Notes: generated from the sequence alone by a model not told the origin. DNA of 57,911 nt from Candidatus Heimdallarchaeota archaeon (GCA_027001645.1 JALTMP010000185.1:1-57911), one strand, 5' to 3'. Shown: positions 7,105 through 55,679, counted from the stretch's first letter. A program made the numbers and translations.

Positions 7105-7116
7105 CATTCTTCAATG

Positions 7117-8391: not shown

Positions 8392-8396
8392 CTACC

Positions 8397-12702: not shown

Positions 12703-13428
12703 ATGGCCATACTTGTCCTTGTCCTACCTCTTCTGCTTAGTGCTTTTACTTTTTTTATCCCCGCCGCTATCGGTATCAATAATCCTGAAACGGGAACCTC
12801 TTTTGGGGGAAATCTTGAATCGATTACGGAAGGAGCTTATGTAAATTACACCCTTCGAAATGGATACTGGTTTTTTTGGGAAGTAGTAACAATTTTCCCT
12901 AATGAAACTGCATTAATTGCAAGAATCAATCAAACCTTATCTGGTCGTTCTATTTCTTTCCTAACCGTTGCTGTGGAAAACCCCGCAGTTTCTCACTTCT
13001 ACCTCTGGACTCAAGTCAATCTTCTCCAACCTGGAGATTCAGGAATTGTGATCGCAAACGGAAGTGCAGATGTTGTATCCGACGCAATTGTAACAATTAG
13101 GGAAAATGAAACAACAATCCCTCTTCAAGCTTACCGTCTAGTCGTTACCAGTGGGCCACTAAGAGGATACGTCTTGTACTATGAATCAGTAACCGGCATT
13201 CTGCTTGAGTCTTATCTTTCCTCCGAGGAAAATCTTCCTTTTATGCAGATACAGGATACTAATCTTCACCTCAGTCTTCCTACGCCCGAGGATAGTGGTC
13301 TGAGCCCCTCTGAGCTAATCGAGTTAGCAGTGAGCTTTTCATTGTTTATTGGTAGCGTTCTCATGATATATGTCTTAACCAACTATAAGATCCCCAAGAA
13401 GAGGAGAGATACGGGGAACTCAGATTGA
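12703..13428 (+). CDS. Secreted, C-terminally membrane-anchored protein of unknown function
   Basis: The N-terminal hydrophobic signal or anchor is MAILVLVLPLLLSAFTFFIPAAIG. Several N-x-S/T sequons are present. The C-terminal TM (LAVSFSLFIGSVLMIYVL) is followed by KIPKKRRD. I recognise no family. Confidence 0.5.
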   Translation: MAILVLVLPLLLSAFTFFIPAAIGINNPETGTSFGGNLESITEGAYVNYTLRNGYWFFWEVVTIFPNETALIARINQTLSGRSISFLTVAVENPAVSHFYLWTQVNLLQPGDSGIVIANGSADVVSDAIVTIRENETTIPLQAYRLVVTSGPLRGYVLYYESVTGILLESYLSSEENLPFMQIQDTNLHLSLPTPEDSGLSPSELIELAVSFSLFIGSVLMIYVLTNYKIPKKRRDTGNSD

Positions 13429-20200: not shown

Positions 20201-22202
20201 CGAAGTCATAGGCTCCTGTATTCATAATATCGACTTTGGGATAAAGATCGGCATTTGGTCCTTTTGAGCTAAACCAACCAACTTGGTCATGGTGCCCTTG
20301 GGTGGTGCTATATGGATCTATCTTAGAAAAGGCCAGATAGTTGTGGGCTGAGGATGCTCCTACTCCGAGAGCAACATCTGCCATGGGTGGACCACCAGTT
20401 CCATATCCGGGACCTGAATTACCGTATGAAATGACGAATAGGAGTCCTGGATAACTAGGATCAATTCCACCCGGTAGAGTGAGTACTTGAAGCGCCAAGG
20501 AAATAATATCACTTCCCGGCCAGAATCCACCGAGAGTTGGTGAAGTGTATCCCCAAGAGTTTGAAGAAATGTTTGCCATGTGTTCTCCGGTCCATCCATA
20601 TTCAATGAATTCACCGTTGTATTGGGGTGTGAACCCAGCAGCCCATAGCCAGGATTCCAAGAATCCGCTGGCAAAGAATCCGCCTAATCCTAAAATTCTG
20701 GCATTTGGCGCTATGCCAACTAAGGTCATGTTTACGTTAGGATCAGAAGCATTTCCGTATTCACCTGCCCAATCATATACTGGGAATGTGAGTTCATTTC
20801 CAGCGATTTGGCCGGCAACACTCGTACCGTGTCCCTGTTCGTCAAATAGCTGGGCAAAGGCACCTCCTTCCGGATCAATAAGGCGGAGCACTGGGTCACT
20901 GTCTGACGTGCTTGGACCCCATCCCGTAATGTTGTAGGAATCTAGTGTGTTGCCGAGAGAGCCTAATGATATGTCGTTGTAACCGTCTCCATCAATGTCT
21001 GCAGCGAGAGTAAAGTTTAGTGCTGCTTCTTGAGCCGTCATTCCTGGAAATACACCATGCCTTTTTGCATAGGGATTCGTATTTGGATCGAAATCAAATG
21101 GAGCATTCTTATATTCTGAGAATGTTGCAGTTCCGAGAATACCATATTCTGTCATCAATAGGGCGGTCTTATAGTCAATGTACAAGGTGTCATAGCCTGG
21201 TTGAGAATCCATGTAATCTGCAAGAATGAAGGGGGCTGCAACCCAGTAGGGTCCTTGAGGTATGAATGAGACACCAAACTTAACAGTTGACCCAACTGGA
21301 AGCTCTTCTGGTGCATGGAATTTGTCAGGGAGTGTGAGTGTTGCAATCTGAAATTCCAATAATTGCTTAAGGGTGAGAATATATGGTCCAAAGGGCGCTG
21401 CCATTACTTGTATTTCATCTTCTGCGCCCTTGGTTACAATCGTGCGAGCACTTGTAATTGTATAATCTTTACTCGTGATTGACATGAAGTATCCCGCGGT
21501 GGCATAACTCATTGGTAGGTTATTGTCGTCGAGTGCCATTTTTCCAACAAGTCCCGGGGTTCCAAAGTCAATTCCTGTATCTGTAGGCGCAACAATGACG
21601 CCAGTCCCGTCTGCGAGCTGAATGGCATCATCTGCCCCAATGAGTCTTCGGGTAATTGGTCCCAACCCATCCGAGCTGCCTACTCCATCTAAAGAGGGTG
21701 TGTCTTCTGGAGTACTCAGTTGATCGAGGGTCGCTTTGTAATTTATGTCCGCGCTAACTAGCGCTACGTCTCCGCGTTCAAACAGAGTTGCAGCAGTTCG
21801 TCGATCTTGGATTGTTGCATGTACCCACCAGAACCCGTCTAGCATTTGGAATGTGGTAACTACGTTCACTAATCCCCCTAGACTGGGATCTGGATTGATT
21901 GTTAGAAACATAATGTGTACGCCAAGATTGTCTTGTCTTACCTCTGCAGGAAGCTCTCCTGTGTTTACCCACTTTGACAACAGGTAATCCTTCTGTTGTT
22001 CTAGGGTAGGAGCTGCTCCTGGATTTAGAGGTGCCGTAAATGTTGATGGGACCGCCGTGGTTGCCGGCATCGATTCAACAGACTCGATAGTTGCTGTCGT
22101 TGACGTTGAATTTGCCGGAGACACCCACGGTAAGGCCCCAAGAAAAGCGGCAATGATTAAAATTGTAAATAATGCTCTTCTATTTGTGATCCTACTTTTC
22201 AT
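17223..22202 (-). CDS. Giant secreted subtilisin-family (S8, pyrolysin-like) serine protease with Ig-like repeats and a C-terminal membrane anchor
   Basis: The signal peptide is MKSRITNRRALFTILIIAAFLGALPW. The catalytic triad motifs are VAPTDTGIDFG (Asp), GHGTSVAGQIAG (His) and GGTSQAAPMTSGSLALI (Ser), with long insertions between them. The C-terminus is GGGFLPFPIYALFGAFALITATIYRRRK. The ATG at 22202 has a GAGGTG Shine-Dalgarno; the ORF track uses the GTG at 22211. Confidence 0.9.
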   Translation of the reverse strand: MKSRITNRRALFTILIIAAFLGALPWVSPANSTSTTATIESVESMPATTAVPSTFTAPLNPGAAPTLEQQKDYLLSKWVNTGELPAEVRQDNLGVHIMFLTINPDPSLGGLVNVVTTFQMLDGFWWVHATIQDRRTAATLFERGDVALVSADINYKATLDQLSTPEDTPSLDGVGSSDGLGPITRRLIGADDAIQLADGTGVIVAPTDTGIDFGTPGLVGKMALDDNNLPMSYATAGYFMSITSKDYTITSARTIVTKGAEDEIQVMAAPFGPYILTLKQLLEFQIATLTLPDKFHAPEELPVGSTVKFGVSFIPQGPYWVAAPFILADYMDSQPGYDTLYIDYKTALLMTEYGILGTATFSEYKNAPFDFDPNTNPYAKRHGVFPGMTAQEAALNFTLAADIDGDGYNDISLGSLGNTLDSYNITGWGPSTSDSDPVLRLIDPEGGAFAQLFDEQGHGTSVAGQIAGNELTFPVYDWAGEYGNASDPNVNMTLVGIAPNARILGLGGFFASGFLESWLWAAGFTPQYNGEFIEYGWTGEHMANISSNSWGYTSPTLGGFWPGSDIISLALQVLTLPGGIDPSYPGLLFVISYGNSGPGYGTGGPPMADVALGVGASSAHNYLAFSKIDPYSTTQGHHDQVGWFSSKGPNADLYPKVDIMNTGAYDFGYGVTDVGNGFYSFRVFGGTSQAAPMTSGSLALIYSAWAKISTTTGSLRPDMAKTILMSTATDLGYDPFSQGVGRVNVSKAMQFIFGRYNTTGTFDPAMRVYTTASHEVEMNRIKTALEYYFTNTYEEGGSGTDFWGFNLTDSLSTYTSANMDDTSLFFGTVTTPVTKAVMIDPNDGSTLQTADAYTYGLDYQHDYTLTNTSARWTFYSLSDLLGATPFTHFKSSDIVQFIFNTDGTAVPEANYWTYLMIWRDADNDNVPEYGPEWEVVSRTLSDVYAQTLWVSLSNLTSTEMDNLYIGVRDFLWDDPATLDENETISPSYQGIEISVSVRMYSKTTGVSGVTVSVTSGTQADVTVDPTGLAPGLHSGFVTLTTSSGISALVPFSFSIPLMVDNGETAGWTTATKDAVDEPYDWDMYPAMAGDMRFFEIMFTGVTPTAAPNTLAISLNWTGKDSHVGFWLADPAGLVFEASDSRFGDLIKNYPYQGNANPEGWGYRYLVNLTAAAEFFGYNISASDFRIHVALYLDKIDTSLTGPEKITFKAAWFDGILGQDITLPEVEIQGTVPSGAPTTHNGKALTTGNFTISVAQDVAGLPAAFLSEFSAKNSEIGVEIGSFFEVSLSNYPIPADDLTPTSGRTVFEYTKPVDLREGMFVRASLDWADAKQDWDLFLLKQPGIVAPDNDVFGFDAATLAKPETATAIIEADGTYTISIDFYDGPIEDSYIDLSFIASKQVLSTSTDPNGEVLTLADEGEYLVDVTLFGFNIPVYSAKIEVDKNPPVMLSTITEVEEDADNPGMGVIGVIFDETSFNATVQLDGTTITTLTNAEGKVSLYVELSKINDYEAHTIKVTGNDYLGRAMTETTWQITLKDSTTPTIVSPPSDQEVKPGETVTLTWTVKDDSGGTYSITIDDNEVATGSFAGGNTEQTISYDFKESSSGEYVVKLTLTDKGGNVATDTVTIIVKSKGGGFLPFPIYALFGAFALITATIYRRRK

Positions 22203-22214
22203 GGGACTCACCTC

Positions 22215-36743: not shown

Positions 36744-37895
36744 ATGATTCCTAATAGAACACCCTTGTATGATTGGCATGTTTCCAATGGAGACGTTGTT
36801 GATTTTGCTGGATGGGAGATGCCAGTTAGATTTTCTAGTATTATTGAAGAACACATGGCTGTTCGAGATGCCGTTGGGATTTTTGATGTGAGCCACATGG
36901 GACGAATCCATGTTAGAGGGAAGCATGCAAAAGACTTCATTGATTTAATCGTTCCCCGAAATGTTAAACGCATGTCCCTTGATCGAGCCGGCTACACCTA
37001 TGTGCTCAACGAAAATGGCGGATTCAAGGATGACGTTATTGTTACGGTTCTTGACGATGACCACATATTCTTTGTTTGTAACGCCTCTAATCGGAAAAAA
37101 ATCGTTAATTGGCTATTGACTCATCTCAAAACAATTCGATCTGTATTTTCTGACTTTGACGTGAAACTACAAGATGTTACCTTTCAAAGTGCAATGATTG
37201 CTATTCAAGGACCGGCCGCTCCAGAGCTTATGAAGCGTGTTTTTGGAACAGCGCCCGCGCGATGGAGAGTTGCACACGGATCTTTCAAAGACTATGATGT
37301 CCTATTAACTGGTACTGGATATACTGGGGAAATTGGTGGGGAAATCACCATCGAAATTGAAGACAAAAATGAACTGAAAAAGGTGGCAATTGAAATTTGG
37401 GAGGCTCTCCTAGAACACGGAAAAAATCTTGCCGTAAAACCATGTGGTCTGGGTGCGCGAGACTCTCTAAGAATGGAGGCAGGATATTGTCTATACGGCA
37501 ATGACATTGATGAACAAATAACCCCAAAGGAAGCAGGATTATTCTTCAGCCCATTTGCTGATAACGAAAAGAAATGGTATATCGGTAAAGACGCTTTAGA
37601 GACCAAAGACCCTACGCAGATTCGTATTGGATTCATAATGCTCGAAAAGGGGATCCCTCGGCATGGATACGATATTCTCAATTCTCAAGGAGCAAAAATA
37701 GGCTGGGTAACCAGTGGCACGCAATCTCCACTACTTCATTCTGGAATCGGAATGGGTTATGTATCCCCCGAATATGCAAAACCGGATACGGATTTATTGA
37801 TTCAAATACGAAAGAGACAAGTTAGGGCAAAAGTTGCTGAATTCCCTCTATATAATAGTTCCAAATATGGAGTTACCAGACAACAAAATACGTAA
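36744..37895 (+). CDS. gcvT: Aminomethyltransferase (glycine cleavage system T protein)
   Basis: TPLYDWHVSNGDVVDFAGWEMPVRF, GIFDVSHMGRIHVRG and LGARDSLRMEAGYCLYGND all match. Confidence 0.9.
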   Translation: MIPNRTPLYDWHVSNGDVVDFAGWEMPVRFSSIIEEHMAVRDAVGIFDVSHMGRIHVRGKHAKDFIDLIVPRNVKRMSLDRAGYTYVLNENGGFKDDVIVTVLDDDHIFFVCNASNRKKIVNWLLTHLKTIRSVFSDFDVKLQDVTFQSAMIAIQGPAAPELMKRVFGTAPARWRVAHGSFKDYDVLLTGTGYTGEIGGEITIEIEDKNELKKVAIEIWEALLEHGKNLAVKPCGLGARDSLRMEAGYCLYGNDIDEQITPKEAGLFFSPFADNEKKWYIGKDALETKDPTQIRIGFIMLEKGIPRHGYDILNSQGAKIGWVTSGTQSPLLHSGIGMGYVSPEYAKPDTDLLIQIRKRQVRAKVAEFPLYNSSKYGVTRQQNT

Positions 37896-43970: not shown

Positions 43971-45311
43971 ATGAGTTCCCATGAAGCATTAAATGAAATA
44001 ATGGGATTGGTTTCCAAACATAATCGGATTTTTCGGGAATCAATTCCTCTGATTGCAAGTGAAAATCTCTTATCAAAATCTGCAAGAGAAGCGCTCGTTT
44101 CTGACTTGGGCATGCGGTACGCTGAAGGTTGGCCTGGTGAACGCGTGTATGCAGGGTGCCAAGCAATTGATGAAATTGAGCTTAAAACCATTGAACAACT
44201 AAAGAAATTATTCAACGCCGCTTTTGCTGATGTAAGGCCAATATCCGGAGTAGTTGCAAATCTTACGGTCTACACTGCGTTTACAAAACCCGGCGACACC
44301 ATGATGGCGATCTCCATTGCCAGTGGTGGACATATTTCAATGGGCCCGTTACGGGCTAAATCAGGAAATATTATTGGAGGGACTGCCGGCGCAGTTCATG
44401 GTCTCGAAGTGGAGTACTTGCCCTTTGATCACAAGGAAATGAATATTGATGTTGCAGAAGCTGAAAAACGAATAAAAGAAACTAAACCTCAACTTGTTCA
44501 GTTTGGTGCATCCGTTTTCCTATTTCCACATCCCGTGAAAGATCTCGCGCCCATTGCACACGATGTTGGAGCAAAAGTTAATTTTGACGCTGCTCACGTA
44601 TCTGGGTTAATCGCTGGAGGTAATTTCCAAGATCCCTTACGAGAAGGTGCAGACTCCATGAGTTTTTCCACCCACAAAACATTCTTCGGACCACAACATG
44701 GTGCAGTTGTCTTGCGCACAGAAGAATATGCGGATGACATAAAAAGAGCCGCATTCCCCGGAATGACGTCTAACCACCACTTACATAATGTCGCCGCTTT
44801 ATCTATTGCAGCTTCAGAATTCGAAGCATTTGGAAGAGAATATGCTACTCAGGTTGTGAAAAACAGCAAAGCCCTCGCCCAAGCCCTATATGATTTTGAC
44901 TTTAATGTTGTAGCTGCTGATAAGGGCTTTACAGAGTCGCATATTATTTTGGTAGACGTCTCCAATCTGCAGAATTCAATCGGACTCGGTGGTGATATCG
45001 AGAAACTCCTGGAAAAATGCAATATTATAGTTAACCGTAACCTCCTTCCGTGGGATATTCGGGAAAAACGCTCATACATGAATCCCGGTGGGATACGATT
45101 GGGCACAAGCGAGTTGACTCGCTTAGGAATGAAGGAAGAAGAAATGGAACAGATCGCGGAATTCATCAAAAAAGCTCTACTTGACAAACAAGATCCTAAA
45201 GAGATTAGAAAAGACGTTTTGGAATTCAAGAAAGACTTCATGACTTTGCATTACACTTTTGACGAAGGCTTTAATCCCTATCTGGACTACACGATCGTTC
45301 CTATCTCTTAG
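43971..45311 (+). CDS. glyA: Serine hydroxymethyltransferase (archaeal type)
   Basis: IPLIASENLLS, RYAEGWPGERVYAGC and FSTHKTFFGPQHG match, the last carrying the PLP Lys. Confidence 0.92.
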   Translation: MSSHEALNEIMGLVSKHNRIFRESIPLIASENLLSKSAREALVSDLGMRYAEGWPGERVYAGCQAIDEIELKTIEQLKKLFNAAFADVRPISGVVANLTVYTAFTKPGDTMMAISIASGGHISMGPLRAKSGNIIGGTAGAVHGLEVEYLPFDHKEMNIDVAEAEKRIKETKPQLVQFGASVFLFPHPVKDLAPIAHDVGAKVNFDAAHVSGLIAGGNFQDPLREGADSMSFSTHKTFFGPQHGAVVLRTEEYADDIKRAAFPGMTSNHHLHNVAALSIAASEFEAFGREYATQVVKNSKALAQALYDFDFNVVAADKGFTESHIILVDVSNLQNSIGLGGDIEKLLEKCNIIVNRNLLPWDIREKRSYMNPGGIRLGTSELTRLGMKEEEMEQIAEFIKKALLDKQDPKEIRKDVLEFKKDFMTLHYTFDEGFNPYLDYTIVPIS

Positions 45312-45495: not shown

Positions 45496-46818
45496 ATGTT
45501 GGATTGTGAGAGTATGGTCACATCAAATCCAAATGGGAAATCGGTTCTCATTATTGGGGGCGGAATTGCCGGAATGCAAGCCGCGTTGGATTTAGCAGAT
45601 CAAAAAATAAAAGTCTACTTGGTTGAAACACTTCCAAGCATTGGGGGACGTATGGCGCAGCTTGATAAAACCTTTCCAACTCTTGACTGCGCTTCTTGCA
45701 TTTTAACGCCGAGGATGGTGGACGTTGCAAGACATGAGAAAATTGAGCTTCTGACATATTCTGAAGTTCAAGAAATAGCCCGAGAGCACGGACATTTTGT
45801 GGTCAAGATTCTCAAGAAACCAAGATACGTCAATACTGAAACTTGTAATGGATGTGGAATATGCGTTACTAAATGTCCTAAGAGAGCTCCAAACGAATTT
45901 AACCTCGGTATGGATGAGCGTAAGGCCATTTATTTTTTGTTCCCACAAGCTGTTCCTTTGGTTCCTGTAATCGATCCGACTGCTTGTATCTATTTTCTAA
46001 GAGGCAAGTGTCGCGCATGTGAAAAACACTGTCCAACTCACTCCATCTCTTTTGATCAGGAACCCGAACTCACCGAAGTTGAAGTTGGGGCCATTATTTA
46101 CGCTACTGGCTTCAGCTTATACGATCCAAGCAAGAACAATGACTATGAATACAACACCTTTCCGGATGTGATTACCTCCTTGGAGTTAGAACGGCTCGTA
46201 TCCTCAACAGGACCAACGGAGGGCTGTGTGATTCGACCATCTAATGGTGAGAAACCGAGGAAAGTTGCTTTTATTCTTTGTGTTGGCTCTAGAAGCCAGC
46301 GAGCGAATTACTGGTGCTCCCGGTTTTGTTGTATGGCTTCAATTAAGCAAGCTGTTCTATTGAAGGAGCACGACCCCCGTATAGAATGTACAATTTTCTA
46401 CATGGACATTCGAGCTTTTGGTAAAGGCTTTCAAGAATTCTACGAACGAGCAAAGAGCGAGTTCAATGTACGTTTTGTCAAAGGAAGAGTTGGTTCTATA
46501 AAGGAAAACTCTCAGGAGGGCAATCTTCTACTTCGATATGAAAACATAGAGACAGGGTACGTGCAAGAGGAGAGCTTTGACTTAGTAGTGCTTGCTGTTG
46601 GAGCTGAGAATCCTCTACGTAAACCTCCCTCCTTCTTGGAACTGGATGATGATGGTTTTATCGCAGTTATGGATCGATATCTAGCTCCCGTGTACACGAG
46701 TGTGGAAGGAATTTTTGTTGCAGGGACCGCAGAAGGCCCTAAGGATATCCCTGATTGCGTTGTTCAAGCAAGCGCCGCTGCAATGGAGGCATCTATTTTG
46801 ATAACGGGAGGCGAATAA
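45496..46818 (+). CDS. Short HdrA-like flavoprotein (QmoA-like in architecture)
   Basis: LIIGGGIAGMQAALDLA is the FAD motif. The inserted ferredoxin shows CNGCGICVTKCP and CRACEKHCP. The HdrA-type cluster is CVGSR...WCSRFCCM. The protein lacks the HdrA N-terminal CxCGxNI domain and the C-terminal ferredoxin. Confidence 0.8.
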   Translation: MLDCESMVTSNPNGKSVLIIGGGIAGMQAALDLADQKIKVYLVETLPSIGGRMAQLDKTFPTLDCASCILTPRMVDVARHEKIELLTYSEVQEIAREHGHFVVKILKKPRYVNTETCNGCGICVTKCPKRAPNEFNLGMDERKAIYFLFPQAVPLVPVIDPTACIYFLRGKCRACEKHCPTHSISFDQEPELTEVEVGAIIYATGFSLYDPSKNNDYEYNTFPDVITSLELERLVSSTGPTEGCVIRPSNGEKPRKVAFILCVGSRSQRANYWCSRFCCMASIKQAVLLKEHDPRIECTIFYMDIRAFGKGFQEFYERAKSEFNVRFVKGRVGSIKENSQEGNLLLRYENIETGYVQEESFDLVVLAVGAENPLRKPPSFLELDDDGFIAVMDRYLAPVYTSVEGIFVAGTAEGPKDIPDCVVQASAAAMEASILITGGE

Positions 46819-46819
46819 A

Positions 46820-48772
46820 ATGAGTGAGGAAATACGGATCGGTGTATATGTCTGCCATTGTGGTATCAATATTGCTGGAGTCATTGATGTAAAGCAAGTA
46901 GTAGAACATGCAAAGACATTGCCGAACGTTGTGGTGGCGAAAGATATTCTGTTCACTTGTTCTAGCGTTGGACAAAATACTATCGTTGATGATATCAAGA
47001 GAGAGAAGCTTAACAGAATCGTTGTTGCAGCATGTTCTCCAAGAATGCACGAAAGTACTTTTCGAAATACTGTTGAGCAAGCAGGCTTAAACCCATTTCT
47101 TTTTGAAATGGCAAATATTCGTGAGCATAGTTCGTGGGTTCATCCCGATGATCCCGAAGGAGCGACCGAAAAAGCGAAAACTCTAGTTCGTATGGCTGTT
47201 GCGAAGGCAAAACTACTCGAGCCTATCGAAAAATCAAGAGCAGATGTGACGAAGAAAGTATTAGTGATTGGAGGAGGAGTTGCCGGTCTTCAAGCTAGCT
47301 TAGATGCTGCCAATCGAGGTCTATCAGTTACCTTGGTGGAAAAATTACCCGTTCTAGGCGGGAAAGCAGCGCTAATTGGGGATTTAGTGTATTCTGAAAA
47401 GAAAGGATGGCAGATCGTGAAAGAATTAGTAACCCAAGTGGTTACTCATGAGAAAATTCATGTTCTAACCAATACGACAGTTGAAAATGTTTCTGGAGCA
47501 TTTGGGGATTATCACGTAACTCTCACTATTACGCCGCGATACGTTAAAGAAACATGTTTGACCCCTGAAAAAGGAGAAGAAGCTTGTCCTGTTGAAGTTC
47601 CCAACGAATATGATTTTGGTTTAACTCGCCGAAAAGCCTTTTATAAGCCCTTTGAACAAGCCTATCCCCCTTTATATTTAATCGACATGTCTTCTTGCAC
47701 GAAATGTGGTCTCTGCCTCGAAGCGTGTGGGAATAACTCCATTGATCTAGAAGAAAAGCCAAAGACCTTGTCTGAAAAATTTGGAACAATAATCGTTGCA
47801 ACCGGATATGAGCCCTATACACCCTCTCTGGGGGAATACGGATACGGCAAAGATGGCAGAGTGATTACTCTCTCTCAACTAGAACGAATACTAAGTGAAA
47901 ATGGCCCCTCTTTTGAGGATCTCAATCTATTTGATTCTGTCGAAAACATAGTCTTCATAAGTTGTGTGGGTTCGATGGAAAACCCAAGAGATGAGGGTGC
48001 TAGGACGTACTGCTCCAGAATGTGTTGCTCTTCATCGATTAAGAATATGCTAAAACTCCGAGAACTCTTTCCTTCATCAAACATCTACTTCCTTTATCGT
48101 GACATACGGACCTATGCTAGAAAAGAAGAGCATCTTTACGAGCAAGCTAGTAAGAATGGAATTATTTTTCTAAAATACGATCTCTCGACACCACCCGATG
48201 TGAAAATCAATGGGAAACCAAGTGTGGAGGTCTTGGATAAACTTCTAGGCAAACGGATTCAGATTCCTGCCGATCTCGTTGTTCTCGCAAATGGCATGGT
48301 TCCTCCGGCTGATATCCTCAAACTACGGAGTCTTTTGAAGTTTCCATGCTCCTCTGAAGGCTGGGTTGCTGAAGCTCATCCTAAGCTTCGACCCGTCGAA
48401 CTTCCCTCCCCTGGAATATACATTGCTGGATCAATCCAGGCTCCTAAGGACATTATAGAATCATTGATCTCAGCAAGTGCTGCCACCGCAAAGGCCGTTA
48501 TTCCAATTATTCATGGGAGAGTGGAACTCGAACCTCTTGTTTCCTATGTCCATGAAGATGTTTGTGGAGCCTGTGGAATTTGTGTCTCAACGTGTCCCTA
48601 TGACGCAGTTCAACGCGTCGCTTTGGAAGATGGTAGAAGGGTAGCAAGAGTTGATCCTCGATTGTGCATGGGATGTGGTCAATGTGTAAGTGCTTGTCCT
48701 TCTGCTGCAATGCAACAAAAGAGTTTCACGGACAAACAGATTCACGAAATGATTGAGCAATTGGTGGTGTAA
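46820..48772 (+). CDS. hdrA: Heterodisulfide reductase subunit A (full-length HdrA architecture)
   Basis: The N-terminal domain is IGVYVCHCGINIAG. FAD binding is VLVIGGGVAGLQASLDAA. The inserted ferredoxin is CTKCGLCLEAC, followed by CSRMCC. The C-terminal ferredoxin shows CGACGICVSTCP and CMGCGQCVSACP. Confidence 0.88.
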   Translation: MSEEIRIGVYVCHCGINIAGVIDVKQVVEHAKTLPNVVVAKDILFTCSSVGQNTIVDDIKREKLNRIVVAACSPRMHESTFRNTVEQAGLNPFLFEMANIREHSSWVHPDDPEGATEKAKTLVRMAVAKAKLLEPIEKSRADVTKKVLVIGGGVAGLQASLDAANRGLSVTLVEKLPVLGGKAALIGDLVYSEKKGWQIVKELVTQVVTHEKIHVLTNTTVENVSGAFGDYHVTLTITPRYVKETCLTPEKGEEACPVEVPNEYDFGLTRRKAFYKPFEQAYPPLYLIDMSSCTKCGLCLEACGNNSIDLEEKPKTLSEKFGTIIVATGYEPYTPSLGEYGYGKDGRVITLSQLERILSENGPSFEDLNLFDSVENIVFISCVGSMENPRDEGARTYCSRMCCSSSIKNMLKLRELFPSSNIYFLYRDIRTYARKEEHLYEQASKNGIIFLKYDLSTPPDVKINGKPSVEVLDKLLGKRIQIPADLVVLANGMVPPADILKLRSLLKFPCSSEGWVAEAHPKLRPVELPSPGIYIAGSIQAPKDIIESLISASAATAKAVIPIIHGRVELEPLVSYVHEDVCGACGICVSTCPYDAVQRVALEDGRRVARVDPRLCMGCGQCVSACPSAAMQQKSFTDKQIHEMIEQLVV

Positions 48773-48774
48773 GA

Positions 48775-49209
48775 ATGTCCGCGAAAGAAGTAGAACAAAC
48801 TAGTTATGAACCAAAAATCTTGATGTTTGCTTGTAATTGGTGTGCATATGCCGGCTTAGATTTGGCGGGGACAAGTCGGCTCACCTACCCCGCTAACGTA
48901 ACTGTCATTAGAACGATGTGTTCAGGTCGAATCGATCCCTCTTTTGTAATTAAGGCACTAACTGAAGGTATTGATGGTGTTCTCATCGGCATGTGTAATT
49001 ACGGCGATTGTCATTACATAGATGGTAACTACAAGGCAATGAAGAGGTTTCTTTTGCTACAGAAGATGCTTCACGATCTTGGTATTGAAATGGAAAGGGT
49101 GCGAATCGAAGGGATCTCCGCTTCAGAAGGGCTCAAAGCGAAGCGAGTAATTAGTGAAATGGTTCATACATTACAAAAACTTGGCCCGTTGAAAATTGTG
49201 GAGGAATAA
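48775..49209 (+). CDS. mvhD: Methyl-viologen-reducing hydrogenase delta subunit
   Basis: MFACNWCAYAGLDLAG, RTMCSGRIDP and CNYGDCHY match. Confidence 0.9.
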   Translation: MSAKEVEQTSYEPKILMFACNWCAYAGLDLAGTSRLTYPANVTVIRTMCSGRIDPSFVIKALTEGIDGVLIGMCNYGDCHYIDGNYKAMKRFLLLQKMLHDLGIEMERVRIEGISASEGLKAKRVISEMVHTLQKLGPLKIVEE

Positions 49210-49213
49210 GAAA

Positions 49214-50191
49214 ATGGGAGAAAAACCTAAGGTTGCTTTTTATTGGTGTAGCACTTGTGGAGGTTGTGAGGAATCAGTAGTTGACCTTGCAGAGAACATC
49301 TTAGATGTGGTTGCCGCAGTAGATATTGTTTTCTGGCCCGTGGCTTTAGACTTTAAATTAGAAGACGTTGAATCTCTCAAAGATGGAGAAATTACTGTAT
49401 GCTTTATCAACGGGGCAATAAGAACTTCCGAAGACGTCCATATAGCAAAACTGTTGCGACAGAAATCACAGTTGATTGTCGCATACGGATCTTGTTCTCA
49501 TTTGGGAGGAATTCCTGGTCTGGCTAACTTCTGGAATCGGGAAGCCATTTTTCAACAGGTGTACAAGGATGCACCCACAATTCACGATGATGTGCCCATT
49601 TTTCCCCAAGAAAAATTCGAAATAGACGGGATTACTCTAACTCTGCCAACATTTTACAACACTGTGCGAAAGCTTGGCGACGTCATTGATGTAGACTACT
49701 ATATCCCTGGATGTGCCCCTAATCCTAATCTGTTGTTAGAAGCAATTAACTTACTTCTCTCTGGAAAGATTCCACCAAAAGGTTCCGTCTTGTCACCAAA
49801 TCGAAATATGTGTGAAGAATGCCCCTTGGAACGAAAAGAAGAGAAATTCAAGCTAACCTCATTTCATCGACCTTTTGAGATTATCCCTGAACCATCTAGA
49901 TGTCTGCTTGAACAAGGAATTATTTGTCTTGGACCAGTAACGAGAGTTGGTTGTGGTGCTCTCTGCATGCAAGTCAATATGCCTTGTAGGGGATGTTATG
50001 GGACAACAGACGGGGTCCAAGATGTGGGAGCGAAATTTGCCTCTGCGCTTGCCTCTATAATTGACGTCGAGAATGACGAAGAATTTGTGAAACTCATAGA
50101 GTCCATTCCGAACTATACGGGACTTGTCTACATGTTTAGTTTGCCGTCTAGTTATCTGAAGAGAAAGAAAATGGAGGTCAATAAACCATGA
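49214..50191 (+). CDS. mvhG: [NiFe] hydrogenase small subunit, Mvh/group-3c type
   Basis: KVAFYWCSTCGGCEESVVD is the proximal cluster motif. Distal Cys clusters are CEECP, GPVTRVGCGALC and CRGCYG. The ATG at 49214 follows a GGAGGA and the mvhD stop. Confidence 0.88.
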   Translation: MGEKPKVAFYWCSTCGGCEESVVDLAENILDVVAAVDIVFWPVALDFKLEDVESLKDGEITVCFINGAIRTSEDVHIAKLLRQKSQLIVAYGSCSHLGGIPGLANFWNREAIFQQVYKDAPTIHDDVPIFPQEKFEIDGITLTLPTFYNTVRKLGDVIDVDYYIPGCAPNPNLLLEAINLLLSGKIPPKGSVLSPNRNMCEECPLERKEEKFKLTSFHRPFEIIPEPSRCLLEQGIICLGPVTRVGCGALCMQVNMPCRGCYGTTDGVQDVGAKFASALASIIDVENDEEFVKLIESIPNYTGLVYMFSLPSSYLKRKKMEVNKP

Positions 50192-51672
50192 ATAAGAAAA
50201 AAATCATTATCGACCCTATCACTCGATTAGAGGGGCACGGGAAGATTACAATATTATTAGATGAAAATGGAGATGTCAATAGGGCATATTTCCAGGTTCC
50301 AGAACTTCGTGGTTTCGAAAAATTTTGTGAAGGGCTCCATGCTGAGGAAATGCCTCGGATTACTCAAAGAATCTGTGGAGTGTGTCCAACTGCTCATCAC
50401 ATGGCTTCAACTAAGGCACTAGATGACCTTTTCAAGGTCATTCCTCCCCCTGCTGCTACAAAAGTTAGAGATTTTGTATATAACGCGTTCATGGTGGAGG
50501 ATCATACTTTGCATTTCTTTTTCCTCGGGGGGCCCGATTTTATTGTTGGTCCTCAAGCACCCAAAGCAGAAAGGAATATTCTAGGGGTTATTCAAAAAGC
50601 GGGAATTGATGCTGGAAAGCGTGTAATACTTATGAGAAAAGCAATTCGTAATCTTTTAACTAAGATTACTGGAAAAGTGATTCATCCCGTATTCGGACTT
50701 CCGGGCGGCATTTCAAAGGCCGTTGATAAAGATACTCAGGAAAAAGCGATTAAGATTTCAAAGCAGGCCATCGAATTTAGCCAATGGGTAATGGAACTGT
50801 TCAACAAGATTGTTCTCGGAAACGATGAATATGTACAGCTGATAAAAAGTGAACCTTTTTACTATGAAACTTACTATATGGGCCTCGTTAATGAAAAGAA
50901 CCAAGTTGACTTCTACGACGGAACACTTCGCGTTGTCGATCCTCATGGAAAAGAATTTGCCAAATTCCATCCCTCCAAATACTTAGACTATATCGCTGAG
51001 CATGTTGAACCATGGACCTATGTTCGTCAGACCTATTTGAAGCCAATTGGCTGGAAAGGGTTTGTTGATGGTCCTGATAGCGGGTTGTATCGCGTCAATC
51101 CCTTAGCACGCCTCAATGTGTCTGACAGCATGTCGACTCCACTTGCTCAAAAAGAATTTGAACGCCTGTTCGACTTATTGGGTGAAAAGCCTGTACATTA
51201 CGTACTTGCTTGGCACTGGGCAAGACTGGTTGAATTGATTTTTGCAGCCGAGCGAATGTTAGAACTAGCTTCTGATCCCGAATTTATAGATTCTAATGTG
51301 CGCGAGATTCCTTCCAAGACTCCTCGTGAAGGAATAGGGTGTGTAGAAGCCCCAAGGGGAGTGCTTATCCACCACTACCAAACAGACGAAAACGCTGTAA
51401 TCCAGAAAGCTAATCTTATTGTTGCGACCCAACAGAATGCTGCCCCGATTAATCTTGGAATTGCAAAGGCTGCTAAAGGACTTATTCGGGACGGTCACGT
51501 GACCGATGGGCTGCTCAATATGGTTGAAATGGCATTTAGGGCATATGACCCTTGCTTCGCATGTGCTACACATTCTTTGCCCGGGCAATTACCACTAATG
51601 ATCGAATTGTATGACCATGAGAAAACCCTAATCGAAAAAGTCCCAATGTGGGAAAAAATAGGAGGGAAATGA
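50188..51672 (+). CDS. mvhA: [NiFe] hydrogenase large subunit, Mvh/group-3c type
   Basis: IIDPITRLEGHGKI is present. The NiFe L1 motif is RICGVCPTAHH and the L2 motif is DPCFACATH, followed by a cleavable tail of about 32 aa. There is an ATGA start/stop overlap with mvhG. Confidence 0.92.
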   Translation: MNKKKIIIDPITRLEGHGKITILLDENGDVNRAYFQVPELRGFEKFCEGLHAEEMPRITQRICGVCPTAHHMASTKALDDLFKVIPPPAATKVRDFVYNAFMVEDHTLHFFFLGGPDFIVGPQAPKAERNILGVIQKAGIDAGKRVILMRKAIRNLLTKITGKVIHPVFGLPGGISKAVDKDTQEKAIKISKQAIEFSQWVMELFNKIVLGNDEYVQLIKSEPFYYETYYMGLVNEKNQVDFYDGTLRVVDPHGKEFAKFHPSKYLDYIAEHVEPWTYVRQTYLKPIGWKGFVDGPDSGLYRVNPLARLNVSDSMSTPLAQKEFERLFDLLGEKPVHYVLAWHWARLVELIFAAERMLELASDPEFIDSNVREIPSKTPREGIGCVEAPRGVLIHHYQTDENAVIQKANLIVATQQNAAPINLGIAKAAKGLIRDGHVTDGLLNMVEMAFRAYDPCFACATHSLPGQLPLMIELYDHEKTLIEKVPMWEKIGGK

Positions 51673-51673
51673 C

Positions 51674-52876
51674 ATGATGCAAACAAGCGTTTTAGAACCA
51701 AAAGTTGCCCCTCCCAGCAAAGAGGCATTAAAGGTTAACCCTCAGTTAATCAATGAATTGAAGCAGTTTGGAGTTGTGTCCCCTGAAATCTGCTACAATT
51801 GTGGGCTGTGTGTTGCAGTCTGCGGACAATCCGGTGCAGAGCACAACTTCCCCCGAAGAACGATTCGGTGTGTTCAATTGGGTTTGGAAGAGGAGCTTCT
51901 TAGTAGTGTTGAACCTTGGCTTTGCTATTACTGTGGTGATTGTACTGACTCATGCCCAAGGGAGGCAGAACCAGCTGAAATGATGATGGGTATACGCAGA
52001 TGGCTCATTGCCAAGTACGATTACACTGGTCAAGCAAAGCATTACTATACGTCTACTAAGCGTCTTATTCTTGACACCGTTTTTTTTGCACTCCTTCCCG
52101 TGCTGGGTTTGTTCATCCTACACTACTTTGGTTGGGCAAGAATCGTTTCTAACGAAGTGAGAATTAATGAGTTCGCACCAGTCATGATAATCTGGATTGC
52201 TGCGATTATCACCGGAACAATCCATGCGTTGATACTACTTGCTGGGGGCTATCACATGTTCAAGCTTGTTATGAACGATGACGCCTTAAAAGATGAAATA
52301 AGAATTTCCGACTATCTCCTCGAGATAAAGGAATTTGTGGCTAATTTTATTACTCAGAAGAAATGGCTGGCATGTGGGAAGAAAGAAGCAACAAGATGGC
52401 TCAAACATCTGATCCTCGTTTTAGGGTATGCCACTATGTTTATACTCATCATCGGCTTTCTATGGTGGTTCCAAACAGATAACATTTATCCCATCACCCA
52501 TCCTCAAAGATGGATCGGCTATCTTGCAACGATTATACTATTATTCGGTACAATCGACATTATTGTTGGCCGTTTGCAAAAAAAAGATCAAATTCACAGG
52601 TTCTCACATCATAGCGATTGGGCCTTTCCCATCATCTTATTCCTTGTTGTTGTTACTGGCATCCTTGTTCATATTTTGAGATACATGGCTCTTCCTTTAC
52701 CAACCTATATCATGTATACTATCCATTTGATGGCCAGTAACGTCATGCTCAGCACTGAGGTTGGAGTTGGGAAATGGTCTCACCTTCTCTACCGTCCACT
52801 AGCTCACTATTTAGATGCTGTAAAGGAAAGAGCTCAGAAGCGAATACTGGTCCCCGGCGATCCAACTCAGATATGA
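51674..52876 (+). CDS. HdrC-like 2x[4Fe-4S] domain fused to a polytopic His-rich membrane domain (QmoC/HdrE/NarI-like)
   Basis: CYNCGLCVAVCG ... CYYCGDCTDSCPREAEP has HdrC-type spacing. At least 5 hydrophobic helices follow, with conserved-looking His residues (ILHYFGW, GTIHALILLAGGYHMF, LKHLILVLGY, GILVHILRY, KWSHLLYRPLAHY). It starts 1 nt after the mvhA stop. Confidence 0.7.
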   Translation: MMQTSVLEPKVAPPSKEALKVNPQLINELKQFGVVSPEICYNCGLCVAVCGQSGAEHNFPRRTIRCVQLGLEEELLSSVEPWLCYYCGDCTDSCPREAEPAEMMMGIRRWLIAKYDYTGQAKHYYTSTKRLILDTVFFALLPVLGLFILHYFGWARIVSNEVRINEFAPVMIIWIAAIITGTIHALILLAGGYHMFKLVMNDDALKDEIRISDYLLEIKEFVANFITQKKWLACGKKEATRWLKHLILVLGYATMFILIIGFLWWFQTDNIYPITHPQRWIGYLATIILLFGTIDIIVGRLQKKDQIHRFSHHSDWAFPIILFLVVVTGILVHILRYMALPLPTYIMYTIHLMASNVMLSTEVGVGKWSHLLYRPLAHYLDAVKERAQKRILVPGDPTQI

Positions 52877-52981: not shown

Positions 52982-53206
52982 ATGTGTGTGGTCCGCCCTC
53001 TAAGAATCATTTCTGTGAACGGAAGCAGTGCTGTTGTTGAACTTCCCTCCGGAGAAACTGCTATTGCAAATACTTCTCTTGTCGAGGCAAAAGCCGGGGA
53101 TTACGTGATTATTAACAATGGTTTTGTCATTCAAGTTTTGCCTCCTGAAGAAGCTCAAGCAACTCTGAGATTATGGGAAAAGCTTGATCAAATGAGCGAA
53201 ATCTAG
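52982..53206 (+). CDS. hypC: Hydrogenase assembly chaperone HypC/HupF
   Basis: The N-terminus MCVVRPLRII carries the essential Cys2. The size is about 74 aa. The ORF-track start at 52973 is a GTG. Confidence 0.85.
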   Translation: MCVVRPLRIISVNGSSAVVELPSGETAIANTSLVEAKAGDYVIINNGFVIQVLPPEEAQATLRLWEKLDQMSEI

Positions 53207-53221
53207 TATGAAGGAATAGGA

Positions 53222-53602
53222 ATGCACGAATATGGCATTATTTCTAATCTCATCCGCATAACTCTAGACCGTCTAGCCAAAGAAAGTGTTTCCAAAGTAT
53301 TACTCGTCGAAATTGAATTTGGTGAATTTCTTTTCATTAATCCTGAGAATGCAAGAATGGCATTTGATTCCTTGGTTTCAGGGACAATTTTGGAAGGCTC
53401 AGAATTGAGGCTACAGTTTGTACCGGGAAAAATACATTGTACTTCTTGTGGCTATGAAGGTGGTGTTCCTCTTCCGAAGGACAAACATCTGCACTACAGT
53501 AACCACTTGCTTATTTGCCCGAAGTGTAACGCTATCCCTCAAGTAGTACAAGGATTAGAGTGTGCTGTTACCCAGATTGAAATCGAATCTATTGTTGCCT
53601 AA
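53222..53602 (+). CDS. hypA: Hydrogenase nickel-insertion protein HypA
   Basis: MHEYGIISNLI is the MHE Ni site. The Zn site is CTSCGYEG...CPKCN. Confidence 0.88.
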   Translation: MHEYGIISNLIRITLDRLAKESVSKVLLVEIEFGEFLFINPENARMAFDSLVSGTILEGSELRLQFVPGKIHCTSCGYEGGVPLPKDKHLHYSNHLLICPKCNAIPQVVQGLECAVTQIEIESIVA

Positions 53603-54087
53603 TTCTTTTGACCACCCGGATTTTTCTCCTCTAATCCTACAAGTTTAGCAATTATCCCCGCGGCCTTTGGAACTGCATTGCTAACCTCCTCCGAAAGTTT
53701 TGTTGTTAATTCAGTAGAGATTTGTTTGAGTTGGCATGTTACAAATGTTATTCTCGTCCCTGTTTTGAGAATCGCTTCTATGATGCTCCTATCCGGGAAA
53801 AAGTGTGAGGATGCTTGCTCGGGTATTTGTGGTAAATTCTGAGCTTGAAGTATCTCGATCTCTCCTGGTTTTTTTCCCAGATCCATCGTATCAATTATGA
53901 TGATCCAATCTGGTCTCTCATCATCAATCGTCAAAGGACGTAGCCATTCTCCGCAAGCGAGGCCCGCATCAATAATTTGAGTATTTCTTGATGCCTCATA
54001 ATGCTGTTCAAGGTAGTTTATCACAGCTGGCCCAAATCCGTCGTCCCCCTTGAGAATATTGCCACAACCAATTACTAAGATGTCCAT
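53599..54087 (-). CDS. Hydrogenase maturation endopeptidase (HycI/FrhD/HoxM family)
   Basis: MDILVIGCGNILKGDDGFGPAV is present, followed by IIIDTMD and a later His. The size is 162 aa. Confidence 0.85.
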   Translation of the reverse strand: MDILVIGCGNILKGDDGFGPAVINYLEQHYEASRNTQIIDAGLACGEWLRPLTIDDERPDWIIIIDTMDLGKKPGEIEILQAQNLPQIPEQASSHFFPDRSIIEAILKTGTRITFVTCQLKQISTELTTKLSEEVSNAVPKAAGIIAKLVGLEEKNPGGQKN

Positions 54088-54116: not shown

Positions 54117-55679
54117 CTATTTTTTCCTTCGTCTTTCAAAGATTTTTTTGCCCTGCTCAGTCAACTCATTCATTGAGTATGAAACCGTTTTTTCCCTAGA
54201 ACTGTCATAAATAAAGACGGTCTTGACCAAATCACTCATCTCTATAGTTCTTAGAAATAACGCTGCATGTGATATCTCTTCTCCTTTCATTCTCTCCAAT
54301 AACACGGGGAAATTTCGCATACTAGGGGTAACTATGTTGGCCATAGATATCCTACCATTAGGGTCAGTAATGAGGTGGTATGTAAGCAATCCTCCCGGGG
54401 CTTCAACTATTCCGAGAGATTGTCTTGATCGCTCAAGAGATCCCGGCTCCTCAGACTCATAATTTGATGGAATCTCAAAATTACCCGGAAATTGGCTTGG
54501 GATGATTTCCAGCAGAGCCTGCAAAAGAAGAACAGAGTTTTCTGTTTCTTTCGCTCTTACCTTTACCAAACCAGCAACATCGTTCTCATTACTCACTGCT
54601 ATTCTTATTGGGAGCTTGTCGTAACCCTCGTGTTCAAGTATCTGCCTCATGTCCATTTTCTGCCCCAAAGCTCTAGCGATTGGACCGACAGGGTCAAAAG
54701 AATCAATTTTCTCTCGCTCTAGCTTCCCTATTTCTTCCACCAACTGTATGACTTGTTGATAGGAAGGGTCTTCAAACAGCTCGTGGATTTTCGTCTCTAA
54801 CTCTTCCATGTACTGTGTTAGCTTGATTCTCATTTTTTTGGGCAAATCAAACATCGACGGTGAAAAAAGAGATCTACTCTTAGAAAGTCCTAGCCTATTC
54901 AAATCGCTGACTTTTAGAGACAACTCATTTCTAACATTAAATGCTTTTTTGAGAAACTCAGGAATACCAACAAAATCTGCGATCATCCCTATCCATAATA
55001 GGTGTCTTGCTATTCTCTCCAGTTCTAAGAAGAATACGCGAAATAAGGTCATGCCTTCGGATGGTTCTCTAAGAGGCGCGATTTTTTCAAGTGCTTTTGT
55101 ATAAGCTAACTGGTGAGAAAACGGACAAAGGGTGATCATAGAGCCCAATCTGTGGGGAATCTCTGCCCACCCATATCTCCTAATACGAGCTTCGATCTTG
55201 TAATAAACTGAACCCAAGTAAACCCTAGCATCCTCAACAATTCCCTCATTTGCAATGAGCCAAAAAGCGAAGAAATTACTGCCATCCTTCTCCTCAATAT
55301 CGTTTGTTACAACATATGAATGAGCAACTTTCTTAAAGCGCAAGTCACTGGCGAACTCTGCTTTTCTTTCAAGGATTTCACTGGATGGATACACGGAATT
55401 GATTGATCTGAACATGATCCTATTCACAGGAATTACAACTTTCACAGTTTTTCGATTTTCTAAGCCTGGAACGAGAAAGACGTAATATAGTATAGAGTCA
55501 AATTTTCCATATGTTATATCCAAAATCCTAGACCCTGGTTTTTGTCTAAAGAATTTTGCAAGATAGTAAAGCTTCTCGGGCTCGGTATGGATTACCCATG
55601 TGTCATCATTTTCCCCTTGAATATCCTTGACACCTATTGAATTCATGACTTCAATAAAATTACTCTCTTCCATGAACAT
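54117..55679 (-). CDS. NuoC-NuoD fusion-like protein (group-4 hydrogenase large-subunit homologue) lacking all NiFe cysteine ligands
   Basis: The N-terminal NuoC-like segment is VKVVIPVNR...SINSVYPSSEILERKAEF. NuoD/HycE-like blocks are FLELERIARHLLWIG, VGPIARALG, GIVEAPGGLLTYHL and IVTPSMRNFPVLLERMKGEEIS. The L1 position reads TLCPFSHQLAY, with a single Cys. The C-terminus has no Cys. Confidence 0.65.
   Translation of the reverse strand: MFMEESNFIEVMNSIGVKDIQGENDDTWVIHTEPEKLYYLAKFFRQKPGSRILDITYGKFDSILYYVFLVPGLENRKTVKVVIPVNRIMFRSINSVYPSSEILERKAEFASDLRFKKVAHSYVVTNDIEEKDGSNFFAFWLIANEGIVEDARVYLGSVYYKIEARIRRYGWAEIPHRLGSMITLCPFSHQLAYTKALEKIAPLREPSEGMTLFRVFFLELERIARHLLWIGMIADFVGIPEFLKKAFNVRNELSLKVSDLNRLGLSKSRSLFSPSMFDLPKKMRIKLTQYMEELETKIHELFEDPSYQQVIQLVEEIGKLEREKIDSFDPVGPIARALGQKMDMRQILEHEGYDKLPIRIAVSNENDVAGLVKVRAKETENSVLLLQALLEIIPSQFPGNFEIPSNYESEEPGSLERSRQSLGIVEAPGGLLTYHLITDPNGRISMANIVTPSMRNFPVLLERMKGEEISHAALFLRTIEMSDLVKTVFIYDSSREKTVSYSMNELTEQGKKIFERRRKK

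Follow-up and report, generated by a model that had tools for sequence, protein, structure and literature searches.

A conserved Heimdallarchaeia operon combining an Mvh-type [NiFe] hydrogenase, QmoA/QmoB-type flavoproteins, and a QmoC-like membrane subunit

Introduction

In the Mvh-Hdr complex, cryo-electron microscopy (cryo-EM) places the MvhD cluster on a mobile arm formed by the N- and C-terminal domains of one HdrA, with a Cys pair between the MvhD [2Fe-2S] cluster and the flavin adenine dinucleotide (FAD) of the partner, HdrA'; one electron from FAD' passes through HA4' and HdrC to HdrB, and the FAD' semiquinone electron passes through the arm's HA3 to the partner's HA5'/HA6' (PMC13580544). 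In Qmo complexes, the membrane subunit QmoC binds heme b (PMC3333476); a "type II" Qmo, nearer to HdrA and without a known role, has also been described (PMC10504309). Parts of both systems occur together in the Mvh-Qmo-Hdr cluster of the archaeon "Candidatus Methanoglobus." Here, we describe a six-gene operon on a 58-kb stretch of DNA (57,911 nucleotides [nt]; GCA_027001645.1, JALTMP010000185.1:1-57911; referred to below as the window) from a Candidatus Heimdallarchaeota archaeon. It encodes an Mvh-type [NiFe] hydrogenase, two HdrA-type flavoproteins, and a QmoC-like membrane protein. We propose, with a probability of roughly 0.55, that these would form a membrane-anchored Mvh-Qmo complex acting as a flavin-bifurcating H2:quinone/ferredoxin oxidoreductase.

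The "Ca. Methanoglobus" cluster was called "fascinating" or "unique" in print from 2022 to 2024. HdrB is reported to be absent from the "Ca. M. hypatiae" genome (bioRxiv 10.1101/2022.12.01.518715 and 10.1101/2023.09.08.556235), where the cluster is highly expressed (995 to 2431 reads per kilobase per million mapped reads) and electrons from H2 are hypothesized to be bifurcated to menaquinone and ferredoxin; the authors of "Ca. M. nevadensis" speculated on electron flow between H2, ferredoxin, and menaquinone. A first-pass annotation of the window had implied that its gene arrangement was novel, which was overstated: both the arrangement and the same hypothesis were already published for "Ca. 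Methanoglobus." Within a literature search that omitted most subscription papers, two points appear undescribed: the conserved presence of the operon in Heimdallarchaeia and the reading of its flavoproteins as an asymmetric heterodimer. The Asgard papers covered by that search deal with MvhADG-HdrABC, new hydrogenase subgroups, and menaquinone, and do not mention Qmo.

An Mvh-type hydrogenase within a six-gene operon

The six genes are tightly packed on the + strand in the order short flavoprotein, long flavoprotein, mvhD, mvhG, mvhA, and QmoC-like gene (Table 1); they are spaced by 1, 2, and 4 nt, a 4-nt ATGA overlap, and 1 nt, and a GGAGG-like motif precedes every one of the six start codons. 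The first-pass annotation had listed these six open reading frames (ORFs) with their order, coordinates, and close spacing by short gaps or an ATGA overlap, together with intact Ni-Fe Cys motifs in MvhA, and all of this was borne out when the sequence was read again.

MvhA, the hydrogenase large subunit, is encoded together with the MvhD adaptor and the MvhG small subunit. Both of its Ni-Fe Cys motifs, RICGVCPTAHH and DPCFACATH, are intact, and it has a C-terminal extension suited to processing by a protease. Its best solved match is 5ODC_F (E 2.3e-116), and it matches NCBIfam VhuA (E 3.2e-118) at 395 bits, under the 800-bit equivalog cutoff; it is about 41% identical to Methanobacteriaceae MvhA and 57 to 65% identical to bacterial MvhA of hdrCBA-mvhDGA clusters. 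MvhD matches Pfam FlpD (E 2.9e-49) and the solved structure 5ODC_D (E 4.4e-46); MvhG matches NCBIfam VhuG (E 3e-67) and Pfam Oxidored_q6, and no twin-arginine signal is visible when its N-terminus is read. The best solved relatives are the MvhA, MvhD, and HdrA of the methanogen complex 5ODC. Judged by sequence, the hydrogenase is Mvh-type, as the first-pass annotation had held, and group 3c-like, the subgroup expected there. New Asgard subgroups of group 3 hydrogenases (3e to 3l) have been proposed in the literature.

The two flavoproteins form a complementary pair

The two HdrA-type flavoproteins have kept different parts of HdrA. The short one covers positions 139 to 564 of the 777-position HdrA2 model (E 1.3e-159) and aligns to HdrA residues 142 to 565 of 8RVV_A (E 7.4e-136); it has the FAD-binding core, the Cys pair (FPTLDCASC), both inserted-ferredoxin Cys motifs, and the HA4 motif (CSRFCC), and is without the N-terminal and C-terminal HdrA domains. 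The long one covers HdrA2 model positions 1 to 640 (E 4.9e-203) and is collinear with 5ODC_A across residues 3 to 647 (E 1.9e-176), keeping the N-terminal cluster domain (CHC...C...C), FAD motif, HA4 motif, and C-terminal 2x[4Fe-4S] domain. It has GDLVYSEKKGW instead of the Cys pair, and its first inserted-ferredoxin motif is degenerate, with two Cys gone and one inserted cluster kept; it stops after the C-terminal ferredoxin domain, MvhD being encoded by a separate gene rather than fused.

We compared these motifs with those of the 5ODC HdrA, bacterial HdrA, and bacterial proteins in the QmoA and QmoB positions, and repeated the comparison on three related Asgard loci (L284 to L286). All five full pairs examined show the same pattern: FPTLDCxxC, the inserted clusters, and CSRFCC in the short protein; the N-terminal CxC...C...C, C-terminal clusters, and CSRxCC, but no Cys pair, in the long one. 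Bacterial single-chain HdrA proteins of hdrCBA-mvhDGA clusters retain every feature in one chain; in the window, no single chain bears all HdrA features, which are divided over proteins of 440 and 650 amino acids (aa). The motif set of the short protein is that of bacterial QmoA-position proteins, and the same QmoA/QmoB-type split occurs in Qmo operons of Anaerolineae-type Chloroflexota and Desulfobacterales. By these motifs, the short and long flavoproteins are a complementary QmoA/QmoB-type pair. Their motif distribution, combined with the homologous cryo-EM structure, predicts a short/long heterodimer with a single bifurcating flavin.

A QmoC-like gene follows mvhA

In the protein encoded by the sixth gene, residues 24 to 377 align to positions 4 to 357 of the 360-position qmoC model NF038018 (E 1.6e-55). 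The N-terminal domain matches HdrC (E 2.1e-14; E 4.9e-14 against HdrC 7BKB_C) and contains two CxxCxxCxxxC motifs (Cys 40/43/46/50 and 84/87/90/94), all eight Fe-S cysteines of which are invariant in the family sequences compared. In an AlphaFold2 (AF2) model (mean predicted local distance difference test 86.9, predicted template modeling [TM] score 0.86), the Fe-S domain is followed by six to seven long helices. The HdrC match, the full-length qmoC match, and the model agree with the earlier description of an HdrC-like Fe-S domain fused to a polytopic membrane domain.

Eight histidines are conserved inside the close family. His245, His351, His370, and Cys234 are kept in 14 of the 15 members compared, including divergent ones (13 of 14 besides the window protein), and His150 and His333 are mostly kept or lost jointly, with two exceptions among the 15 (L285 and L107). 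These histidines fit the heme b binding described for QmoC, and we infer that the membrane domain would bind heme and quinone. The first-pass annotation had named a lack of QmoC homology and of conserved histidines as findings that would refute it; both were checked, and neither refutes it, since QmoC homology and conserved membrane-domain histidines are present. Cys234 lies outside both Fe-S motifs, in a loop predicted to be cytoplasmic that joins the second and third long helices, and does not vary among 48 aligned family sequences, the window's included.

We do not claim a NarI fold for the membrane domain, since no PDB fold match was obtained at E ≤ 0.001. Neither the single sequence nor a 48-sequence profile, used to search for a solved QmoABC or QmoC structure, matched anything in the membrane part; all matches were to the HdrC domain.

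The operon is conserved in Heimdallarchaeia

The host is a Heimdallarchaeia archaeon. Its EF-1alpha is 98% identical to that of the metagenome-assembled genome (MAG) Dive96_bin2.176 and 94% identical to that of a MAG labeled Candidatus Heimdallarchaeota, which confirms the Asgard-like host suggested by the first-pass annotation; further EF-1alpha matches, at 71 to 76% identity, are mostly to Heimdallarchaeota MAGs. Archaeal housekeeping genes in the window encode aEF-1alpha, aIF5A, the PolD small subunit, TFE-alpha, and GatDE. A 97-kb metagenome scaffold includes the window as an identical segment, and the window also overlaps a contig of GCA_027016885.1.

The operon is conserved in this clade: a survey of related MAGs, proposed in the first-pass annotation, recovered the same gene order in seven other Asgard loci (L009, L136, L007, L284, L285, L286, and L287), which are all the clade loci inspected. 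The nearest MvhA clusters (67 to 91% identity) with source names come from Kariarchaeaceae or Heimdallarchaeota. A hypC-hypA pair is present in L009, L284, L286, and L287, and a maturation protease gene in L284 to L287; L285 has hypC and the protease gene but no hypA, and no hypA was seen in L007 and L136. The QmoC-like gene starts 0 to 4 nt past the mvhA stop codon in eight of eight Asgard loci, counting the window, and we therefore reject the possibility that it is a chance neighbor.

Two subtypes of QmoC stand beside Mvh in Heimdall genomes, 44 to 69% and about 30% identical to that of the window. One Kariarchaeaceae MAG (L007) has two QmoC-like paralogues (4624 to 5823 and 9875 to 10963): the copy in the Mvh operon is 31% identical to the window protein, and the stand-alone copy 4 kb downstream is 57% identical, which suggests that the membrane subunit of this operon was swapped.

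HdrB is absent from the locus, and HdrC is present as a domain

As noted in the first-pass annotation, the window has no gene for a CCG-domain HdrB: a regular-expression search for CX(n)CCGX(m)CXXC found no such ORF in any of the six frames of the 58 kb, and Pfam scans of 40 window ORFs found no HdrB. Likewise, no CCG ORF was found in the flanks of the seven related Asgard loci.

The closest bacterial MvhA proteins (57 to 65% identity; from Acidobacteriota, Chloroflexota, Gemmatimonadota, and others) are mostly encoded in hdrC-hdrB-hdrA-mvhD-mvhG-mvhA clusters, and, among the matches listed for a four-sequence MvhA alignment against GTDB species genomes, bacterial hdrCBA-mvhDGA loci again predominate. 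In contrast to these clusters, therefore, the Heimdall clade has a QmoA-type gene at the front and a QmoC-type gene at the back in place of HdrC and HdrB.

These bacterial relatives also bear on a conventional explanation, in which the hydrogenase belongs to an ordinary MvhADG-HdrABC heterodisulfide-type reductase, with hdrBC elsewhere in the genome and the QmoC-like protein an accessory or unrelated neighbor. The HdrB search covered 58 kb, which is only part of the genome, and Asgard genomes are widely reported to carry MvhADG-HdrABC; such an explanation has precedents both among the nearest bacterial clusters and within the Asgard archaea. We nevertheless consider it very unlikely, given the position of the QmoC-like gene directly after mvhA in every Asgard locus, none of which has a CCG ORF; moreover, the HdrC-type domain of the QmoC-like protein would itself fill the HdrC position on the flavoprotein, and the flavoproteins are divided as in Qmo, whereas hdrCBA-mvhDGA clusters encode a single-chain HdrA. 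The hypothesis of the first-pass annotation, a hybrid of Mvh-Hdr and Qmo, is supported at each point examined: the Mvh-type hydrogenase, the full-length QmoC homology of the sixth protein, the QmoA/QmoB-type split, and the absence of HdrB from the window and the flanks of the seven loci.

Hydrogenase-free relatives in bacteria

The QmoC-like family is large: a search at E ≤ 1e-5 gives 2224 homologues, and species-representative genomes contain at least 592 loci. Of the 80 best QmoC loci, about 70 are hydrogenase-free operons (mvhD-like, qmoA-like, qmoB-like, in some cases a small gene, and qmoC) from Anaerolineae-type Chloroflexota, Planctomycetota, Desulfobacterales, and other bacteria. Combinations of Mvh and QmoC outside the Heimdall clade are rare and scattered (Elusimicrobia, L139; Eubacteriales, L128; Ignavibacteria, L236). 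The hydrogenase-free bacterial operons fit the published "type II" Qmo, and the QmoC-like protein of the window is consistent with a "type II" QmoC. An example of this operon, which is very common in bacteria, is found in Anaerolineaceae (L005/L006, 5848 to 12150), with about 70 further loci in L085 to L163; the small gene encodes about 100 aa and is helix-turn-helix (HTH)-like. In L005, the operon is flanked by genes for TusA, rubrerythrin, and a DsrE-like protein.

The existence of these operons raises the possibility that the window encodes a Qmo-like complex serving a cytoplasmic reductase encoded elsewhere (for example, a disulfide or sulfur-carrier reductase), to which the short flavoprotein would pass electrons from H2, menaquinol, or both, ferredoxin not being the partner. 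Desulfovibrio QmoA contacts AprAB, with a hydrogenase proposed as co-donor (PMC3333476); the bacterial mvhD-qmoA-qmoB-x-qmoC operon adjoins TusA and DsrE-like genes in one Anaerolineaceae genome; and "type II" Qmo is found in organisms both with and without Dsr/Apr (PMC10504309). The window itself has no apr, sat, dsr, or TusA gene nor any other candidate acceptor gene, Apr, Sat, and Dsr genes having been looked for in the window scans, and the called genes of four related Asgard loci (L284 to L287) likewise show none. The short subunit, furthermore, retains both inserted-ferredoxin clusters, which are the ferredoxin exit in HdrA. We therefore regard a dedicated reductase partner as quite unlikely, and favor a bifurcating complex that would reduce quinone and ferredoxin.

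A proposed bifurcating mechanism and its direction

In the proposed Mvh-Qmo complex, a heterodimer of the long and short flavoproteins would take the place of the methanogen HdrA homodimer. The long subunit would act as the mobile arm, for which it has an N-terminal "shuttle" cluster domain and a C-terminal ferredoxin domain and on which MvhD and the hydrogenase would dock; the short subunit would provide the only complete bifurcation core, with FAD, the adjacent Cys pair, HA4, and two inserted-ferredoxin clusters. Electrons from H2 would flow from MvhA via MvhG and then MvhD to the short subunit's FAD. From there, one electron would take the downhill path, by way of HA4 and the two Fe-S clusters of QmoC, to the membrane domain (where heme b would probably receive it) and finally to a menaquinone-type carrier; the other would take the uphill path to ferredoxin by way of the shuttle cluster and then the inserted clusters. 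The net reaction would be 2 H2 + quinone + 2 oxidized ferredoxin giving quinol + 2 reduced ferredoxin: quinone would take the part of the heterodisulfide, and the high-potential branch would run via QmoC, not HdrBC. Reversal would be possible at low H2. By textbook values, the potential of quinone is about -75 mV and that of the heterodisulfide about -140 mV. Heimdallarchaeia have been reported to use menaquinone, "possibly" reduced with H2 (bioRxiv 10.1101/2024.07.04.601786).

Several observations weigh against this reading. The window protein scores 189 bits against the qmoC model, below the NCBIfam cutoff of 300. Of the two profile families to which the first-pass annotation had tied it, HdrC was found (together with qmoC) and NarI/HdrE was not: Pfam PF02665 has no match in the membrane domain of the window protein even at E up to 10 and is found in none of the 48 sequences of the family alignment, which include that of the window; a sub-threshold match (E 0.0048) occurs in the divergent Kariarchaeaceae subtype only. 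A Foldseek search of the AF2 model against PDB finds NarI only weakly (probability 0.8, TM score 0.34). The long subunit retains a FAD motif, an HA4 motif, and one inserted cluster, so that a second active site is possible. Finally, since the two QmoC subtypes are so divergent, the membrane partner has, by sequence comparison, evidently been exchanged or diverged fast in Heimdall genomes.

The same complex could also run in reverse, as an electron-confurcating enzyme that makes H2 from menaquinol and reduced ferredoxin, so that a peptide-fermenting, syntrophic Heimdall archaeon without a terminal acceptor could get rid of membrane-level electrons as H2. The enzyme is assembled from reversible modules, Asgard archaea in culture produce H2 syntrophically and express [NiFe] hydrogenases strongly, and genes of glycine and serine catabolism (GcvT and serine hydroxymethyltransferase [SHMT]) lie just upstream of the operon. 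By standard potentials, the reaction would be roughly feasible (-75 and about -500 mV versus H2 at low partial pressure). All biochemically characterized group 3c enzymes, by contrast, oxidize H2 under cellular conditions (PMC11216029), and the sequence gives no sign of direction; we judge operation chiefly in reverse to be unlikely, and retain H2 oxidation with bifurcation to quinone and ferredoxin as the preferred role.

A broader proposal joins two claims: that the operon is a clade-wide Heimdallarchaeia device reversibly coupling H2 to both the quinone pool and ferredoxin, and that its half-degenerate long subunit is a surviving evolutionary intermediate between the symmetric HdrA homodimer and the asymmetric QmoAB pair of sulfate reducers. 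We offer this combination tentatively and would not expect both parts to hold. Under the first claim, Heimdallarchaeia could use one enzyme both for respiration that consumes H2 and for syntrophy that evolves it. Asgard hydrogen metabolism is central to syntrophy models of the origin of the eukaryotic cell, and a recent proposal has Heimdallarchaeia shifting from metabolism based on ferredoxin to respiration based on quinone. This operon is a concrete, conserved candidate for a link between H2 and quinone. The asymmetric flavoprotein heterodimer with a single bifurcating site is an experimentally tractable prediction. Confirmation of the preferred scheme would place quinone beside the heterodisulfide among the high-potential acceptors of Mvh-HdrA-type bifurcation and would tie the origin of the Qmo complex to a hydrogenase.

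Operon layout and neighboring genes

Coordinates are collected in Table 1. The element TTATATAAAAA is a candidate promoter (TATA box) for the operon, as read from the sequence. The first-pass annotation had hypC and hypA following the operon immediately; they are present in that order, and hypC starts 105 nt past the sixth gene. The HycI/FrhD-type endopeptidase encoded next probably processes MvhA, and its gene is kept in the same position in L284, L286, and L287.

Table 1. Features of the operon and its maturation genes in the window
Feature	Position	Strand	Length (aa)	Basis or remark
Candidate archaeal TATA box, AT-rich, TTATATAAAAA	45446..45456	+		About 40 nt upstream of first gene; read from sequence
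Short HdrA-like flavoprotein, QmoA-type	45496..46818	+	440	HdrA2 model, 8RVV_A, motifs
Full-length HdrA, QmoB-type without fused MvhD	46820..48772	+	650	HdrA2 model, 5ODC_A, motif alignment
MvhD, [2Fe-2S] adaptor subunit	48775..49209	+	144	Pfam FlpD, 5ODC_D
MvhG, [NiFe]-hydrogenase small subunit	49214..50191	+	325	NCBIfam VhuG, Pfam Oxidored_q6
MvhA, [NiFe]-hydrogenase large subunit	50188..51672	+	494	NCBIfam VhuA, 5ODC_F, Ni-Fe motifs
QmoC-like subunit	51674..52876	+	400	NCBIfam qmoC, HdrC 7BKB_C, AF2 model
hypC, hydrogenase maturation chaperone	52982..53206	+	74	Starts MCV; Pfam HupF_HypC on the identical gene in L001
hypA, nickel-insertion metallochaperone	53222..53602	+		Pfam HypA, E 1.6e-21
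HycI/FrhD-type hydrogenase maturation endopeptidase	53599..54087	-		TIGR00072, E 9e-33; convergent with hypA

Adjoining the protease gene is an orphan NuoC-NuoD fusion-like gene (54117 to 55679, - strand; 520 aa; Complex1_49kDa, E 5.5e-16), which, examined by eye, is without both Ni-Fe Cys motifs (ITLCPFSH stands for CxxC...H, and there is no C-terminal DPCxxC); none of its immediate neighbors is another nuo or hydrogenase gene. Because it occupies the same place in L284, L286, and L287, it may belong with the operon. A second pair, of a conventional NuoD (282 bits) and NuoC, is found 37 kb upstream (7273 to 8999, - strand); beyond the pair is an ORF on the same strand without a Pfam match (9072 to 9707, 211 aa), and the further genes are unrelated.

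The genes for the glycine-cleavage T protein and SHMT (36744 to 37895 and 43971 to 45311) are upstream on the operon's + strand and may hint at amino acid catabolism as a source or sink of reducing power. In L287, a UbiA-family prenyltransferase gene (6751 to 7611) lies about 2 kb past the Mvh-QmoC-hyp block and could be a quinone biosynthesis gene. Two large genes on the - strand of the window encode a 1662-aa subtilase with a C-terminal PKD-like domain (17223 to 22211) and a 728-aa protein with a TrmB-type HTH and a long apolipoprotein-like helical region (13420 to 15606).

Comparison with known systems

The cluster of "Ca. M. nevadensis/hypatiae," compared here by published description only, resembles the window in its MvhAGD, its two HdrA homologues (one classed as QmoB), and its HdrC-QmoC cytochrome b fusion. 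It differs in its host, a methanogenic euryarchaeote (Archaeoglobi) as opposed to an Asgard archaeon of the Heimdallarchaeia; the hypC-hypA pair and maturation protease gene that follow the window operon are a further listed difference.

Compared with methanogen MvhADG-HdrABC (5ODC, 8RVU, and 9SW2), MvhA, MvhG, MvhD, and the long HdrA of the window are collinear, strong homologues, and all cofactor motifs of methanogen HdrA occur somewhere in the locus, but the window spreads the HdrA features over two chains. Methanogen HdrB, which has noncubane CCG clusters and reduces the heterodisulfide, has no counterpart in the window locus, and HdrC is present only as a domain fused to a membrane protein.

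The window shares with QmoABC, both type I (sulfate reducers) and type II, a short flavoprotein, a long flavoprotein, and an HdrC-plus-membrane subunit, and its flavoproteins show the same pattern of kept and lost motifs. The QmoC-like protein is 41 to 54% identical to the bacterial and Methanoperedens members compared directly and 41 to 52% identical over 80 survey loci. Unlike QmoABC, the window operon includes a complete hydrogenase (mvhG and mvhA) and has no apr or sat neighbors, and MvhD has a gene of its own, located after that of the long flavoprotein and before those of the hydrogenase, instead of being fused to QmoB or placed first. The long flavoprotein resembles QmoB-position proteins of Chloroflexota and Desulfobacterales in having lost the Cys pair, and MvhD is separate there too; with one inserted cluster kept, it is nearer HdrA than Chloroflexota QmoB is.

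Group 1 membrane-bound H2:quinone or H2:methanophenazine hydrogenases (Vht/Vho and Hya/Hyb) are outward facing, Tat exported, and nonbifurcating, and have a cytochrome b subunit. The role predicted for the window operon would be similar insofar as electrons from H2 reach a lipid-soluble carrier via a histidine-rich membrane subunit; in contrast to group 1, its hydrogenase is cytoplasmic, of Mvh type, and wired through flavoproteins.

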